Origin: Thermoflexibacter sp.
GTDB lineage: Bacteria; Bacteroidota; Bacteroidia; Cytophagales; Thermoflexibacteraceae
Direction: 5' to 3'
Length of the DNA stretch: 39,668 nt
Assembly: GCA_025455345.1 (NCBI GenBank)
Contig: JALOMS010000002.1
Span: 1 to 39,668, forward strand
Under the pieces are notes generated by a model, which saw only the letters and a program-made list of their open reading frames with translations, was not told the DNA's origin and did no database searches. Shown one piece after another: positions 10,292 through 22,793 of this stretch. A program made the position numbers and the translations under genes. Position 1 is the first letter of the stretch; the number at the start of each line of letters is the position of its first letter.

Positions 10292-11575
10292 TTAAGACTG
10301 AGTCTTGAATCTTTTTTTGGTATACGATAATCCTACTCCTAAACCTTTAATGTATAATTTTAATCTGTCATAAAACAAAACATCGTGCCTACCAGATATA
10401 TACTCACTTCTTAGCAGTAAAAATTCAGAACTTCTTACCCCCAATTCAAGTAAAAGCATAAATACTTCCGCAATTCTCCTCTCATCAACCAAATCTAATA
10501 ACTCATTAATTGTTTCACGCTTAATACGTCTTCCCTTTGAAAATGAAGCTATTGGGGTGTGATTTTTTTTACTTTTTTCTACTAAATCTTTCTCATTGAA
10601 GACCCTAATAAATTCAGCAATAAACACATAATTTTCTCCCAATCCTCTTATTAGGCTTGCTTTTTCTGAAAAAAGGATATTCTCCCCAATCGCAATAAAC
10701 TTATTGTATCCTAATAAACTATCATAGAAATAAGAGTCCTCCATTCTTAGGAGAATTTCATCATAAATTATTTGATTATCAAAAAATTGATTTAGTAAGT
10801 TTTCAATTAAAAAGCCATATTTTTCTTGGTAGGCATTAAAAAAAGGCTCAAATTCAGGTGATTCTACTTCTACCCTTGACAGTACAGGCAAGACGACTCC
10901 TCTGCGGAATTTGCCACTTGTTACATAAGGAGAATTTACAATGCTTTTTGCTACTTGTAGGCAGCCTTCCAAATTTTGGTAAGTAGGTGCAATCACCAAA
11001 ATATTAACTTCGGGTAGTTGGATGTTACAAATATTGGAGTAGTCGCTTAGTCCTGTACGGCTGTCTATGAGAATATAATCATAATCCAAACCTTTCAATT
11101 CTTTTTTGATGTACTCTATATATCGCTTTCCGTCCAAAGTTTCGTAAAATTCGTACCAGTCAAAATCTATCACATTTCGCTTGTACTCCTCTGCTTCGCT
11201 GTATTTTCCTGCGGGAATCAGGTCTATTTTCCCTGTTCTAATTTCTTGTTTTTCAGTTGTTTGAGTAAGTTGAGAAGTATCTATTAATTTGATAATGTTT
11301 TCATCTGTAAATTTGGGAAAGTCCTCAATTTTAAGGTCTTGTAAATTTTCTGCACTGCGAACCAATTTACAGTAATCTTGGAAAACTTCTACAATACCTT
11401 TATTAGTGATGTCTTGATTGCTCTTTTTAAAATAAAAATGTATCCCAGGAGCCTCCAAATCCCAGTCAATCAACAAAACTTTCTTGTTATGCTGATAGCA
11501 AAGGTAAGCGGCAATATTTGCCATGAGTTGTGTGCGCCCTACACCGCCTTTATATGAATAAAAAGTAACTATCAT
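10292..11575 (-). CDS. ParA/MinD-like KGGVGR-motif ATPase with C-terminal helical adaptor-like domain
   Basis: N-terminal TFYSYKGGVGRT (deviant Walker A with K to R), IDWDLEAPG, DLIPAG and IDSRTG. Residues ~356-412 resemble the C-terminus of the CHAT protein. Confidence 0.85.
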   Translation of the reverse strand: MIVTFYSYKGGVGRTQLMANIAAYLCYQHNKKVLLIDWDLEAPGIHFYFKKSNQDITNKGIVEVFQDYCKLVRSAENLQDLKIEDFPKFTDENIIKLIDTSQLTQTTEKQEIRTGKIDLIPAGKYSEAEEYKRNVIDFDWYEFYETLDGKRYIEYIKKELKGLDYDYILIDSRTGLSDYSNICNIQLPEVNILVIAPTYQNLEGCLQVAKSIVNSPYVTSGKFRRGVVLPVLSRVEVESPEFEPFFNAYQEKYGFLIENLLNQFFDNQIIYDEILLRMEDSYFYDSLLGYNKFIAIGENILFSEKASLIRGLGENYVFIAEFIRVFNEKDLVEKSKKNHTPIASFSKGRRIKRETINELLDLVDERRIAEVFMLLLELGVRSSEFLLLRSEYISGRHDVLFYDRLKLYIKGLGVGLSYTKKRFKTQS

Positions 11576-11591
11576 CTTGAGAATTAGTGTT

Positions 11592-12368
11592 TTAATTATT
11601 TAAAGTAAGCGGTATTTCTTCTTCAAATTGGTCTTGCAAGGCAGGAATCGCACACGTCAAATCAAACTGTAATCTTGCTATGCTTGTCAATCTCCTAAAA
11701 AATGTATTTCTGTCCGCTACTTCTAAATCTATGTAAAAATAACCACTATCTTGCCTTTGTTGCAAAAAAACATCAGCATATTTGTAGTGAAAGTTATATA
11801 ATGAACTGAAAATCTTTTGATTGCGCTTAAACATTATTTCTTTGTGTGCAGTAGTATGCGTTTGGCAAATAGGTATTAAGCAACCACCAATTTCTTTATC
11901 ATTAAAAACTTTGGCTAATGCCTCATTACCAGCAAAATGAAGTGCAAAACTATCTACCAGCAAGACAAGATTCTTTTTCATATTTTTAAGACTATCGATG
12001 AAAATGTTATCTATTTCTTCATTTTTAAAATCAAGAATAAAAGCATTCAGGCGATAGCCCGACTTATCTTGGTAGTCTTTCAAGAGTTTTAAAATTGTAT
12101 CTTCTTTGCTGTAAGGTTTCCAATTTTCATGCTTTTCATCATAATGTGTCTTTAAAAGAGAAAAGTCTATTCCTTTCACTTCATTTTCAATACTTTTAGC
12201 AGAAGTCGTGATAATGAGCAGATGTAAAGGCTTTGTTTGAGTATGAATAATATTTCGCAAAGATTGCTCAAACTTCTGCAAATCTATGTGATTTACAGAA
12301 ATTTGACTTAGGTTGCAGCCTTGAATGACTATATTAGCATTGCCTGTAATTTCACTTGTATTGGGCAT
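11592..12368 (-). CDS. Hypothetical protein, FxsC C-terminal-domain-like, with N-terminal N/Q/G-rich motif
   Basis: HYDEKHENWKPY, LVLLVDSFAL and CLIP recall FxsC C-terminal motifs (from memory, not searched). N-terminus ITGNANIVIQGCNLSQISVN. Gaps of 8 and 16 nt to its neighbours. Confidence 0.55.
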   Translation of the reverse strand: MPNTSEITGNANIVIQGCNLSQISVNHIDLQKFEQSLRNIIHTQTKPLHLLIITTSAKSIENEVKGIDFSLLKTHYDEKHENWKPYSKEDTILKLLKDYQDKSGYRLNAFILDFKNEEIDNIFIDSLKNMKKNLVLLVDSFALHFAGNEALAKVFNDKEIGGCLIPICQTHTTAHKEIMFKRNQKIFSSLYNFHYKYADVFLQQRQDSGYFYIDLEVADRNTFFRRLTSIARLQFDLTCAIPALQDQFEEEIPLTLNN

Positions 12369-12376
12369 ATTTTAAT

Positions 12377-13405
12377 CTATTTTAAAGCTGTACTCAAATA
12401 AACTTTTAACCTATCTACAAAATCACTCAAATCTATCCCTTTTAATCCCGCAGAAAACTCCTTTTTAAAGCGATTGTATTGAAAATCTTTGAAGCCTTTT
12501 TTGTCCAATTGATTGAAAGCCTCTGTAAGATTTCCTTGCTCAATCAAATCCATAATTCCATTTTTGTCCATTTCAGAATTGCTTTGGTTATTGGGTGTTT
12601 GTGGATTATTGGTTACAATATTAATCGTAACATTCGAATTTTCTATTCCTTGAAGGTTTAAATTATTATTCCCCTCAATTTTGCTTTCATTTTTCTTTTC
12701 TGGATTCATGTTATTTTCAACTTTTTCTAATTTCCAATTTTTACTTTCCCCTTTGGCAACATACATCTCCCAAGGCGTTTTCTCCTTCATTGGCTCTTTC
12801 AAATCTCTGCGGTACAGTCCACGAAAATTATCCTTTCCATTTTTCATGGTGATTTCATCTTGTGCCTCGCTCCACGCCCTATCTATGTCCATGCCCTGCC
12901 CCACGCCCCTGTAAAAGCGAATCGCCAAGTGGGTAGCTACCTCATCACTGATTTCGCTCACCGTTCCTATCACTACGGGAATCCCTGTGTCAGAGAGTTC
13001 TTTTGCTTGCTTTTCCGTAGTGCAGCCATTGAAAAAGACGAGTTGCAAGCCTTTCTGCTTGGCAAAAAAGGAAACCAAACCTTCGCCATGGGCAAGGCTG
13101 TTTGAACCACTGTTAGCGTCTTTGACGACTAACAGGGTCTCGAGGAGGAGTTGGTAGCCATCGGCATGACCGCCAAAGTGGAAAACGGCAATCCTATCTC
13201 GATAACGGCTATCTTGGAATACATCTATGATGTTTTCTATGCTTGCGTTGGCGCGCTCTACTATCTCGCAAAGCCCTTGTTTTTCAGCTTCTTGGAGTGC
13301 CTTGCGGATTCCATTGTGTTCCGCAGGAATATTTCTCAAATACCTTGCATTGTCCTCTCTGTCATTGGCAAAGGCAAGGAAAATCACAGGTTTTTGGTTG
13401 GGCAT
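12377..13405 (-). CDS. CHAT (caspase-like) domain protein with C-terminal low-complexity motif and helical adaptor-like domain
   Basis: VIFLAFAN start, catalytic His in VFHFGGHA, catalytic Cys in LVFFNGCTT, VVIGT..EISD..A..FY; then an N-rich linker and a ~64-aa helical tail. Confidence 0.9.
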   Translation of the reverse strand: MPNQKPVIFLAFANDREDNARYLRNIPAEHNGIRKALQEAEKQGLCEIVERANASIENIIDVFQDSRYRDRIAVFHFGGHADGYQLLLETLLVVKDANSGSNSLAHGEGLVSFFAKQKGLQLVFFNGCTTEKQAKELSDTGIPVVIGTVSEISDEVATHLAIRFYRGVGQGMDIDRAWSEAQDEITMKNGKDNFRGLYRRDLKEPMKEKTPWEMYVAKGESKNWKLEKVENNMNPEKKNESKIEGNNNLNLQGIENSNVTINIVTNNPQTPNNQSNSEMDKNGIMDLIEQGNLTEAFNQLDKKGFKDFQYNRFKKEFSAGLKGIDLSDFVDRLKVYLSTALK

Positions 13406-14017: not shown

Positions 14018-14170
14018 TCATTTGCTTACTTCGCTTTTCCATCCATGCTCCACATTATAGACTTTGGGTCTAAAAGGAGAAGGAATGATTTTTTCCACTG
14101 CTTTGGGGTCAGCAGTGAAATTGATTAAAATTCTGTGGTCTATGTAACCATGTATGGTCGGGATTTTCAT
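14018..14170 (-). pseudogene. Truncated or internally deleted DUF2071-family gene (50 aa)
   Basis: Manual translation gives MKIPTIHGYIDHRILINFTADPKAVEKIIPSPFRPKVYNVEHGWKSEVSK*. The first ~38 aa match the DUF2071 N-terminus as I recall it. Not in the ORF track. Confidence 0.65.
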
Positions 14171-20841: not shown

Positions 20842-22245
20842 ATGCTTTTCAAGATACAAAACTTAGGCGCAGTCAAAGAAGCAGAAATAGACCTCAGCAA
20901 AGACCTCATCTTGCTCTGTGGGCATAACAATACAGGTAAAACGTATGTGGCGTATGCAATGTATCGTTTTATCCAATTTTTAGCAGATTGGATTTCAGGA
21001 GGTGGTGAAAGTACAGACGAAACATTACCTAAATTTTTTAGTAAAAGAAAAAAGCAATATAAAATTAACTTAAAAGACTTTTTTGATAAAATTGATAAAG
21101 ATATTCTTTTCAACATTCTAAAAGGAGACTTAAATAATATAGATAAATTAAAATACTTTTGGAGTGTTTCACAAGAAAATCAACTATTTAATAATATTAA
21201 ATTTGATTTTAGCATTTCAAATGATGATGTTTATGCTAACATATTTGCAAAAAGTATCATACAAGAAAAAGTAGATATTGGTAATGCTTTTGTTGTTATT
21301 CTTATTAAAGAAGAAAATACTTATGATATATCATTGTTTATCAAAGTTTTGGATGTTAAAGAGTTTAAGAATGATTTAACTGAAAGGGAATATACCTCTT
21401 TTCTTCACTCTCTTATAGAAGAGGTTATTCTGAATCTAATAAGCAATAAACCTTATATATTTCCTGCTGAACGTTCTGCAACTAATATTTTCAGTACAGA
21501 GCTATCATTAATCCAACATAGAATTTGGATAGCAGCTCTAAAAGATAATCCTCTTATTGAATTAGCAAAAAGACGAGTAAACCGCTATCCTCAACCTATT
21601 CGTGATAGCTTAGAACTTTCCCAAGATTTGGAAACATTGGCTAAAACTACAAGCCCTTTTTCCTACTTAGCAGATGAGTTAGAGCAAGCCATTCTGAAAG
21701 GGAAAATCAGCGTAGGGCAGTACGGAGATTTGCGCTATTCCCCTGCGGAAAGTCCAGATTTGAAGTTAGAAATGCACGTCAGTTCGTCTTTGGTGAAGTC
21801 ATTAGCTTCCATTTCCTTCTACCTGCGCCACATTGCCCAAAAAGGGGATTGTATCATTATAGACGAGCCAGAACTTAACCTGCACCCTGACAATCAGATT
21901 TTGGTGGCTCGTTTCCTTGCCCGCTTGGTAAACGAAGGCTTCAAGGTCATTGCAAGTACGCATAGTGATTATATTATTCGGGAAATCAATAACTTAATCA
22001 TGCTTGGCAAAGAAGATGAAAAGGCAGTAGCGTTGAGAAAAAAATATGAATATAGTGAAAAAGAAGTGCTGAAATCAGAGCAGGTACAAGCATTACTATT
22101 CAAGAGAAAAAAAGGGGAGGAAAAAGTAGTTGCTGAAAATCTGACTGTGAGCGAAACAGGACTTGCGATTGAAACGATTGATGAAGTGATAGAAGATTTG
22201 GAAAATAGAACTGAAGACATTTATTTCAACCTTTTTGAGCAATGA
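20842..22245 (+). CDS. ABC-type AAA ATPase (AAA_15/AAA_21-like)
   Basis: Walker A CGHNNTGKT, FPAERS, degenerate signature SSSLVKSL, Walker B IIIDEPELNLHP and STHSD. Confidence 0.88.
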   Translation: MLFKIQNLGAVKEAEIDLSKDLILLCGHNNTGKTYVAYAMYRFIQFLADWISGGGESTDETLPKFFSKRKKQYKINLKDFFDKIDKDILFNILKGDLNNIDKLKYFWSVSQENQLFNNIKFDFSISNDDVYANIFAKSIIQEKVDIGNAFVVILIKEENTYDISLFIKVLDVKEFKNDLTEREYTSFLHSLIEEVILNLISNKPYIFPAERSATNIFSTELSLIQHRIWIAALKDNPLIELAKRRVNRYPQPIRDSLELSQDLETLAKTTSPFSYLADELEQAILKGKISVGQYGDLRYSPAESPDLKLEMHVSSSLVKSLASISFYLRHIAQKGDCIIIDEPELNLHPDNQILVARFLARLVNEGFKVIASTHSDYIIREINNLIMLGKEDEKAVALRKKYEYSEKEVLKSEQVQALLFKRKKGEEKVVAENLTVSETGLAIETIDEVIEDLENRTEDIYFNLFEQ

Positions 22246-22793
22246 TAAACTTTATAGACAAAATAAATCAAATTATTGACAATCAGTTTTTTACTCCTCA
22301 TGACAAAGGCACTCAAATTAATCTAAAAGGTTCTGGTGAGTGCAAAGAAATTCCTTTTGAAAAGGGTAACGTAAAAACACTAACAATTTCAGTAGATAAA
22401 GAAGGTTTTGATGGGCATCCTTTGTTGAAAACGATAAAAAACCTCAAAAAATATCCTGACTACATCATTTTTTGTCAAAAAGGAAATCAATTATTTGTTT
22501 TGGTAGCAGAATTAAAATCGACTAATTCAGACGATTGGCATAGACAAGCAAAAGCAGGTTTAGCTTTTGCCCAATATTTAGTAGGAATGTTAGAAAGTTT
22601 TGAAAAAAAAATATTTGATATTGAGTATCGCTGCCTTTTATTTCATACAAAGAAAGAAACAAGAAGTATGAAAAAAGGGAAAACAGAAAAAAAACAATTT
22701 AAGTATAGTAAACACCCTATTTTTAAATATCAATTTTCCGATAAACCTTGTAATGTAAAAACACCCTATTCTTTGGAGATATTTTTACGTTGA
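22242..22793 (+). CDS. Hypothetical protein, probable PD-(D/E)XK-type nuclease
   Basis: KYPDYIIF..VAELKS..RQ gives a PD..ExK..Q pattern; ATGA overlap with the ATPase stop. Confidence 0.6.
   Translation: MINFIDKINQIIDNQFFTPHDKGTQINLKGSGECKEIPFEKGNVKTLTISVDKEGFDGHPLLKTIKNLKKYPDYIIFCQKGNQLFVLVAELKSTNSDDWHRQAKAGLAFAQYLVGMLESFEKKIFDIEYRCLLFHTKKETRSMKKGKTEKKQFKYSKHPIFKYQFSDKPCNVKTPYSLEIFLR

Follow-up and report, generated by a model that had tools for sequence, protein, structure and literature searches.

Related systems and the locus under study

The closest described relatives of the locus considered here are the TIR-ParA apoptosis systems, a recently catalogued class of putative bacterial immune systems (Li, Burroughs and Aravind, bioRxiv 10.64898/2026.10.19.760177, section 25) in which the C-terminal domain of FxsC (FxsC-C) is regarded as an inactive TIR domain, ParA is proposed to act as the switch, and rarer variants carry EAD5 or EAD6 adaptors or a caspase displacing TIR-FC. 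Two further lines of work are relevant. Pairs of bacterial amyloid signalling sequences (BASS) with TIR, CHAT and cyclase effectors have been described for NOD-like receptors (NLRs) (Dyrka et al., bioRxiv 10.1101/2020.01.06.895854), motif templating has been demonstrated for Bab/Agp (Ibarlosa et al., bioRxiv 10.1101/2024.11.07.622273), and in the consulted literature bacterial amyloid signalling is represented by NLRs and one TPR-GreA/B-C-PIN sensor. The principle of effector-associated domains (EADs) was laid out by Kaur et al. (2020, PMC7159879; 2021, PMC8195603), the later paper including LRR-AP-GTPase-COR proteins with C-terminal EADs. Here we analyse a three-gene locus of Thermoflexibacter sp. 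(contig JALOMS010000002.1; the window is the whole 39,668-nt stretch analysed). It comprises, all on the minus strand, a CHAT effector gene (12377-13405; 342 aa; a CHAT caspase-like protease followed by a beta-motif and an EAD11-like helical domain), a middle gene for an FxsC-C adaptor (11592-12368; 258 aa; an N-terminal beta-motif and a divergent, inactive TIR-like FxsC C-terminal domain) and a gene for a ConB2-type KGGVGR ParA-like ATPase (10292-11575; 427 aa).

Like the TIR-ParA systems, the locus has a ConB2-type ParA, in which Walker A has Arg in place of Lys and PG follows DxD, an FxsC-C inactive TIR encoded upstream of it, a fixed gene order and a variable ParA tail. Unlike their canonical members as described, it has no active TIR, STAND or TIR-FT, none of its three proteins matching TIR or NF040588; its effector is a separate gene product, likely joined to the adaptor by short matching beta-motifs, and its ParA tail is EAD11-like. 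The likeness to BASS pairs lies in a motif of about 20-25 aa that two adjacent genes both encode, one copy lying at the C-terminus of the effector and the other at the N-terminus of its partner, in TIR, CHAT and cyclase effectors, and in fused all-in-one forms alongside split ones; the partner, however, is an FxsC-C protein beside a ParA ATPase rather than an NB-ARC or NACHT NLR, and the window's CHAT protein has its motif in an internal position. As in the EAD systems of Kaur et al., a small all-alpha domain is found on a core component and on effectors, both in the operon and genome-wide, as well as at the C-terminus of LRR-GTPase-like proteins, but the 27 copies tested fall below the EAD11 cut-off and a MoxR-vWA or GTPase ternary core is missing. 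The actinobacterial FxSxx-COOH locus (TIGR04276, NF040588, NF040586) likewise places an FxsC-C domain beside a KGGVGR ATPase; the window, by contrast, has no TIR-FC match, no NB-ARC/TPR fusion and no neighbouring peptide-processing genes. By analogy, the locus would work as a TIR-ParA core whose effector is coupled in BASS fashion, while missing one defining feature of each. The literature search found no text that joins such a core with BASS-type motifs; the main text of the TIR-ParA preprint speaks of amyloid only for an extracellular glycine-rich domain and contains none of the terms prion, RHIM, Bacteroid- and Cytophag-, although its figures or supplements may show the clade.

From the observed domain content, gene order, swapping of effectors, adaptors and tails, motif matching and fused forms, we read the locus as a Bacteroidota variant of the TIR-ParA (FxsC/FxsT-like) systems, in which an FxsC-C/ParA pair is joined by a swappable CHAT effector that is likely recruited by amyloid-style beta-motifs and would then likely kill or arrest the infected cell. 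Taken as a whole, this is the account that we favour, if with modest confidence.

A conserved pair with interchangeable effectors

At every one of the 43 loci whose core match is strong, 35 of them reached from the middle gene and 8 from the ATPase, the FxsC-C gene lies directly upstream of the KGGVGR ATPase gene; the invariant unit is thus the FxsC-C and ParA pair and not the triad. Among the 35 middle-gene loci, CHAT is encoded directly upstream in only three (the window, L032 and L051), two genes away in one (L058) and within a fusion in one (L064). A conserved CHAT triad was accordingly rejected, with CHAT missing at most loci and the CHAT-motif-EAD tail recovered in only 6 protein clusters, one of which is a caspase bearing the EAD alone. 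The initial annotation had proposed an undescribed three-gene conflict system with the caspase-like protein as its hub. Its view of the locus as a conflict-type relative of FxsC/FxsT that lacks active TIR, NB-ARC and TPR parts and is coupled through amyloid-like and EAD-like modules is supported; the class, on the other hand, is already described, the conserved element is the pair, and neither the hub role nor the expected co-occurrence of the triad in other Bacteroidota is borne out by a neighbourhood search in which most loci have no CHAT gene.

What takes the place of CHAT varies widely. Upstream partners include CHAT, TIR and cyclase-like proteins (the last called by eye, with neither a Pfam nor an NCBIfam match), membrane proteins with EADs, as well as helical proteins of EAD9-like type, whereas at many loci there is no such partner; TIR effectors are encoded upstream in L040 and fused in P0081 and P0090. 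A full-library search returned 256 clusters at 50% identity, and among the best 150 of these 256 family representatives 51 carry the family-A beta-motif described below (some of them being among the nine loci from which its profile was built), 16 an EAD11-like domain and 11 a directly fused CHAT domain, with further fusions to TIR, EAD11, NNH5 and SMEK. Fusion, helical adaptor and beta-motif thus alternate at one and the same position. In a quick tree (SH-aLRT support only, labels made by hand, two short ATPases left out) the clade receives an SH-aLRT value of 99, and adaptor types change repeatedly within it.

The middle-gene profile matches 27 of the 401 genomes of the order, Cytophagales (one match, L065, being to the motif only), and 1 of 400 other genomes sampled across the phylum; the matches are concentrated in three families, with patchy presence in each (10 of 19, 9 of 25 and 6 of 17 genomes), and the viral contigs searched contain no relatives. 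The TIR-ParA class is described as enriched in multicellular bacteria; named carriers of the middle gene are Thermoflexibacter, Hugenholtzia and Bernardetia, all of filamentous habit. The closest relative with a name is Thermoflexibacter ruber, whose middle protein is 82% identical.

Two variant architectures may be recorded here. At L070 (2649-5866) a CHAT-FxsC-C fusion precedes a ParA whose end is formed by another CHAT-like domain, one with an altered second motif. A three-gene variant from metagenomes (L078, L081, L085, L088, L091, L093, L094) combines a multi-pass membrane protein of about 290-300 aa, a bare FxsC-C-like protein of 211-224 aa and a ParA, which in the one case inspected (L081) has a membrane tail; the first two genes have no NCBIfam match in those tested.

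Matching motifs in effector and adaptor

The candidate amyloid signalling motif of the window is an Asn/Ile-rich beta-motif, here called family A, at residues 239-262 of the CHAT protein (12620-12691, minus strand), with a matching copy at residues 3-26 of the adaptor (12291-12362, minus strand), whose residues 1-27 are 89% identical in L032. The two copies agree at 10 of 24 positions (pairwise E 0.003). With a profile built from nine other loci only, the CHAT copy comes out top of 17,864 genome ORFs (open reading frames; E 1.3e-7) and the adaptor copy is found at E 0.02; conversely, the best non-self match of the adaptor motif among 7,829 genome ORFs is the motif of the adjacent CHAT protein, if by a small margin (54 versus 50). 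The sharing of an N/Q/G motif, noticed at first sight, is therefore real, but it is not exclusive to these two proteins, since 2-4 further ORFs of the genome carry it weakly.

The same arrangement recurs among the relatives, where tightly attached effectors usually end in a segment of about 20-26 residues that matches the N-terminus of their own FxsC-C protein; in most of them no more than about 30 residues separate the motif from the effector C-terminus. Family A, in an assignment made by eye, comprises the window, L032, L048 and, weakly, L037, and the other families are those of L040/L042, of L043/L045/L050/L053, of L051, of L058/L076 and of L068. The matched pairs of different families are visibly distinct and sit on different branches of the tree, and L073 and L074 have a matched helical segment in place of a beta-motif. 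Asn (+2.1 log2) and Ile (+1.1) are enriched in the motifs, Leu is depleted (-1.8) and Pro does not occur.

Do effectors match their own adaptors better than those of other loci? Specificity was scored by comparing the first 35 residues of each adaptor with the whole upstream protein, a rule under which the internal motif of L051 is missed; this fixed segment replaced a first decoy test in which the decoys' own CHAT and EAD domains had distorted the result. The adaptor's own partner ranked in the top 3 of about 37 at 10 of 16 loci with a co-oriented gene no more than 45 nt upstream, and at 0 of 5 loci with wider gaps; in a permutation over 13 loci, from which three near-siblings had been dropped, none of 200,000 arrangements reached the observed score (P 5e-6). 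At L058 (1075-3617), checked after the fact, the CHAT and FxsC-C motifs match at 15 of 26 positions and rank 1 of 37 across two inserted genes, and between L040 and L042, whose ATPases are near-identical, the motif has been retained while the effector was swapped. Of 151 motif residues that are identical, 81 are encoded by different codons, so the matched motifs are not fresh duplications; a recent tandem duplication as their source is disfavoured on the same count.

Some individual loci deserve mention. The two genes inserted at L058 are small and resemble, by eye, a nucleotidyltransferase-HEPN pair. L068 (5301-9496) has a motif-linked effector that looks TIR-like by eye, together with an FxsT-like ATPase, and is inserted immediately behind the specificity gene in a restriction-modification (R-M) locus of type I. 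In L039 and L062 similar motifs were seen by eye on downstream genes.

The protease, the adaptor and the ATPase

The CHAT domain occupies residues 4-230 (12716-13396, minus strand; Pfam PF12770, E 2.6e-11), and its His80/Cys128 dyad, within the motifs HFGGH and FNGC, is intact, as had been reported, both residues being invariant in 6 aligned proteins. The genome encodes 9 CHAT paralogues, all with the dyad motifs; the eight others (G000 contigs C181, C540, C667, C613, C169, C769, C282 and C738) join a common N-terminal CHAT domain to differing C-terminal modules. A CHAT protein 49% identical to that of the window, P0024, retains the tail of motif and EAD; it and P0006, an adaptor of 69% identity, are both on contigs of 22,527 nt, and the two may belong to one more triad.

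The FxsC-C core of the adaptor (residues 45-238; 11655-12236, minus strand) has no Pfam match, and its direct score against TIGR04276 (FxsC_Cterm) is below threshold (E 0.003, 17.3 bits against a cut-off of 55); 15 of 30 adaptor homologues match this model weakly. A further link comes from the core profile, which finds the C-terminal domains of canonical FxsC proteins whose genes directly precede those of more distantly related KGGVGR ATPases (best E 5.8e-9, L077), and all eight canonical-type FxsC proteins tested pass the TIGR04276 cut-off. Homology to FxsC-C, as judged from these profiles, is established transitively only; the earlier label of an FxsC-like protein holds in that sense, but the direct score remains under the curated cut-off. 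The structural model shows an alpha/beta domain of five strands (mean pLDDT 80), the Foldseek rows of which are flavodoxin-like and TIR, both non-significant, while the Atlas leads are TIR clusters (score 0.78); the fold is assigned by homology. No glutamate is invariant in the family; the most conserved Glu column reaches 63% and is Gly in the window's protein. These features fit the inactive-TIR status that Li, Burroughs and Aravind give to FxsC-C.

The ATPase scores 136.7 bits against NF047398 (cut-off 90), in agreement with its first assignment as a KGGVGR ATPase, and has the conserved motifs S-x-KGGVGRT, DWDLEAPG and DYILIDSRTG; R14, D39, P43 and G44, the residues diagnostic of ConB2 ParA proteins, are invariant across 29 aligned ATPases. 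In the TIR-ParA class as described, ParA is fused to a variable C-terminal sensor. Among the relatives the tail behind this domain consists of tetratricopeptide repeats (TPRs) in 21 of 43 and otherwise of LRR-TIR, TIR, EAD11, DO-GTPase1 or further types. In the window and L031/L032 it is EAD11-like, hence adaptor-like and with no evident sensor. Between the window and L032 the tail is only 24% identical as against 84% for the ATPase domain, from which it follows that the tail was replaced or drifted in one lineage.

The helical module is present as residues 278-342 of the CHAT protein (12380-12574, minus strand; four helices, model pLDDT 90.7) and as residues 353-416 of the ATPase (10328-10519, minus strand), the position held by TPRs in many relatives. 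The copies are identical at 15 of 56 positions (pairwise E 2e-4). That they share a domain was thus rightly seen, but not that they do so exclusively: a profile from 15 copies finds it in 18 ORFs of the genome, and in a whole-genome search the ATPase copy matches other proteins at E 2e-10 but the CHAT copy only at E 0.13. Exclusive EAD pairing within this genome is ruled out by the number of carriers and the better non-cognate matches. None of 27 helical copies tested reaches the Pfam cut-off for EAD11 (PF19964), which is all the same their most frequent weak match (6 of 27, best E 0.043); the top three Atlas clusters for the domain carry EAD11 (score 0.85-0.86), and true EAD11 occupies the corresponding positions in relatives. 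Under the EAD principle, copies that share a locus should be each other's closest. At G060, in a first-look search with 8 candidates scored, the best match of the ATPase tail is the EAD of the adjacent CHAT protein (E 1e-12 versus 0.01), a closeness that holds by E-value only, as a copy from the window's genome is equally identical. The tail of the window's ATPase is closest to LRR-GTPase-like proteins of its own genome. Five LRR proteins that end in an EAD11-like domain (G000 contigs C488, C234, C513, C597 and C646), Roc-COR GTPase-like by eye, are candidate sensors in trans.

A possible mechanism and competing explanations

How might such parts act together? A signal would reach the ATPase through its tail, which contains TPRs in about half of the relatives; here the EAD11-like tail would bind EAD-bearing proteins, either CHAT itself or LRR-GTPase-like proteins encoded elsewhere in the genome, or it might alternatively serve as a second tether to the protease. 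The nucleotide state of ParA would then change and ParA would oligomerise, clustering the catalytically dead FxsC-C domain, whereupon the clustered N-terminal motifs could template the matching motif of the effector, as in Bab/Agp, and proximity would activate the protease, with death or arrest of the cell as the outcome. The motif would thereby stand in for the covalent link of the TIR-FxsC-C and CHAT-FxsC-C fusions. Conceivably, though we put this forward tentatively and as something short of probable, the family represents a third bacterial amyloid immune route, in which a ParA/MinD-type switch and a dead TIR-like adaptor nucleate any of six or more interchangeable motif families and so set off plug-in effectors (caspase-like, TIR, cyclase-like or membrane proteins), and in which amyloid motifs, helical adaptors and fusion are equivalent wiring. 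If true, ParA-driven amyloid signalling would extend the phenomenon to a different class of NTPase. The loci would also offer a natural swap series, in which one core is wired in several ways (fusion, helical adaptors, a number of beta-motif families) and from which one could learn whether an amyloid motif and a death-like domain can replace one another as couplers, besides supplying new candidate motif families and a small three-gene test case for the TIR-ParA class.

Several results sit uneasily with the account of a ParA-based system coupled by amyloid-style motifs. The window's CHAT protein ranks only 10 of 36 against its own adaptor, a match at the family level only, being outscored by other family-A motifs and by CHAT-fused N-termini. 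The limit of 45 nt on the gap was chosen post hoc, and loci that are related do not count as independent; some nine adaptors bear a motif but lack an upstream partner. Identity between the two EAD copies of the window is 24-27%, and neither is the other's best match; Foldseek searches of the PDB with models of the adaptor and the EAD domain gave nothing at E<=0.001, and sequence searches of the PDB returned no credible match. Relative to BASS motifs as described (about 25 aa, rich in N, Q, G, V and I, poor in K, P and L), Asn and Ile are up and Pro and Leu down as expected, but Gln, Gly and Val show hardly any enrichment and Lys no depletion. The surroundings give no help either: the PARIS and R-M genes flanking the window's locus are absent at the orthologous locus L031/L032, and flanking genes of the relatives match PADLOC models in 7 of 105 cases as against 10 of 124 random genes (the control genes coming from 20 stretches picked at random in a single genome, that of the window, with the relatives' metagenome loci left out). 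On these counts no enrichment of defence islands around the relatives was found, and the PARIS/R-M setting of the window is not general.

The compositional shortfall in Gln and Gly is one reason to ask whether the same system could operate with motifs whose pairing forms an ordinary, finite interface of beta-strand or beta-helix type instead of a self-propagating amyloid. The matching evidence speaks for homotypic pairing only, and the motif of the window's CHAT protein lies inside the chain, with a folded domain after it, where the BASS position is terminal. We nonetheless consider a finite interface rather unlikely, given that the length of the motifs, their richness in Asn and Ile, the absence of Pro and their C- and N-terminal placement in most relatives mirror BASS pairs, as do the effector spectrum of TIR, CHAT and cyclase-like proteins and the coexistence of split and fused forms, and given the low confidence of the motif in the monomer model (pLDDT 46-57). 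The abundance of EAD11-like ORFs and CHAT paralogues in the genome invites another thought, namely that the FxsC-C/ParA pair forms one node of an adaptor network spanning the genome, with the adjacent CHAT as only one of its clients and with an EAD tail and a motif that mainly recruit proteins encoded elsewhere. The affinity of the ATPase tail for LRR-GTPase-like proteins, its sharp dissimilarity from the L032 tail and the missing upstream effector at many loci all accord with this; against it, the adjacent CHAT holds the genome's best motif match, and at G060 the tail is best matched by the neighbouring CHAT's EAD. Such a network, which we rate as slightly less likely again, is compatible with the amyloid-coupled model, the difference being mainly one of weight.

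It is, finally, improbable in our view that the locus serves no anti-phage purpose and is instead a module for developmental or stress-related cell death, or for positioning, that reuses immune parts. Flanks that are mostly housekeeping, viral contigs devoid of relatives and the positioning roles known for ParA proteins could be so explained, but the patchy presence within families, the rapid swapping of tails and effectors and the TIR, caspase and LRR partners are typical of conflict systems, and one copy (L068) lies within a type I R-M locus.

Genomic surroundings

The three ORFs were verified as co-oriented on the minus strand, with gaps of 8 nt between the CHAT and adaptor genes and 16 nt between the adaptor and ATPase genes, and the PARIS-like pair, R-M system, Dabb gene and pseudogene nearby also lie where the initial annotation had placed them. 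PADLOC 2.0 finds no match for the CHAT protein or the adaptor and only a partial PDC-M28B match for the ATPase (E 1e-16), so that no complete named system fits the trio. The AriA/AriB genes of the PARIS-like pair beside the locus match their PADLOC models at E 9e-31 and 4e-42, and a type II R-M pair and the Dabb gene also flank the locus; between the methyltransferase and Dabb genes lies a 50-codon remnant (14018-14170, minus strand) that resembles a truncated gene. A second defence-like pair is found farther along the window (20842-22793, plus strand), its products matching PADLOC PD-T4-4 A (E 2e-101) and B (E 3e-21).

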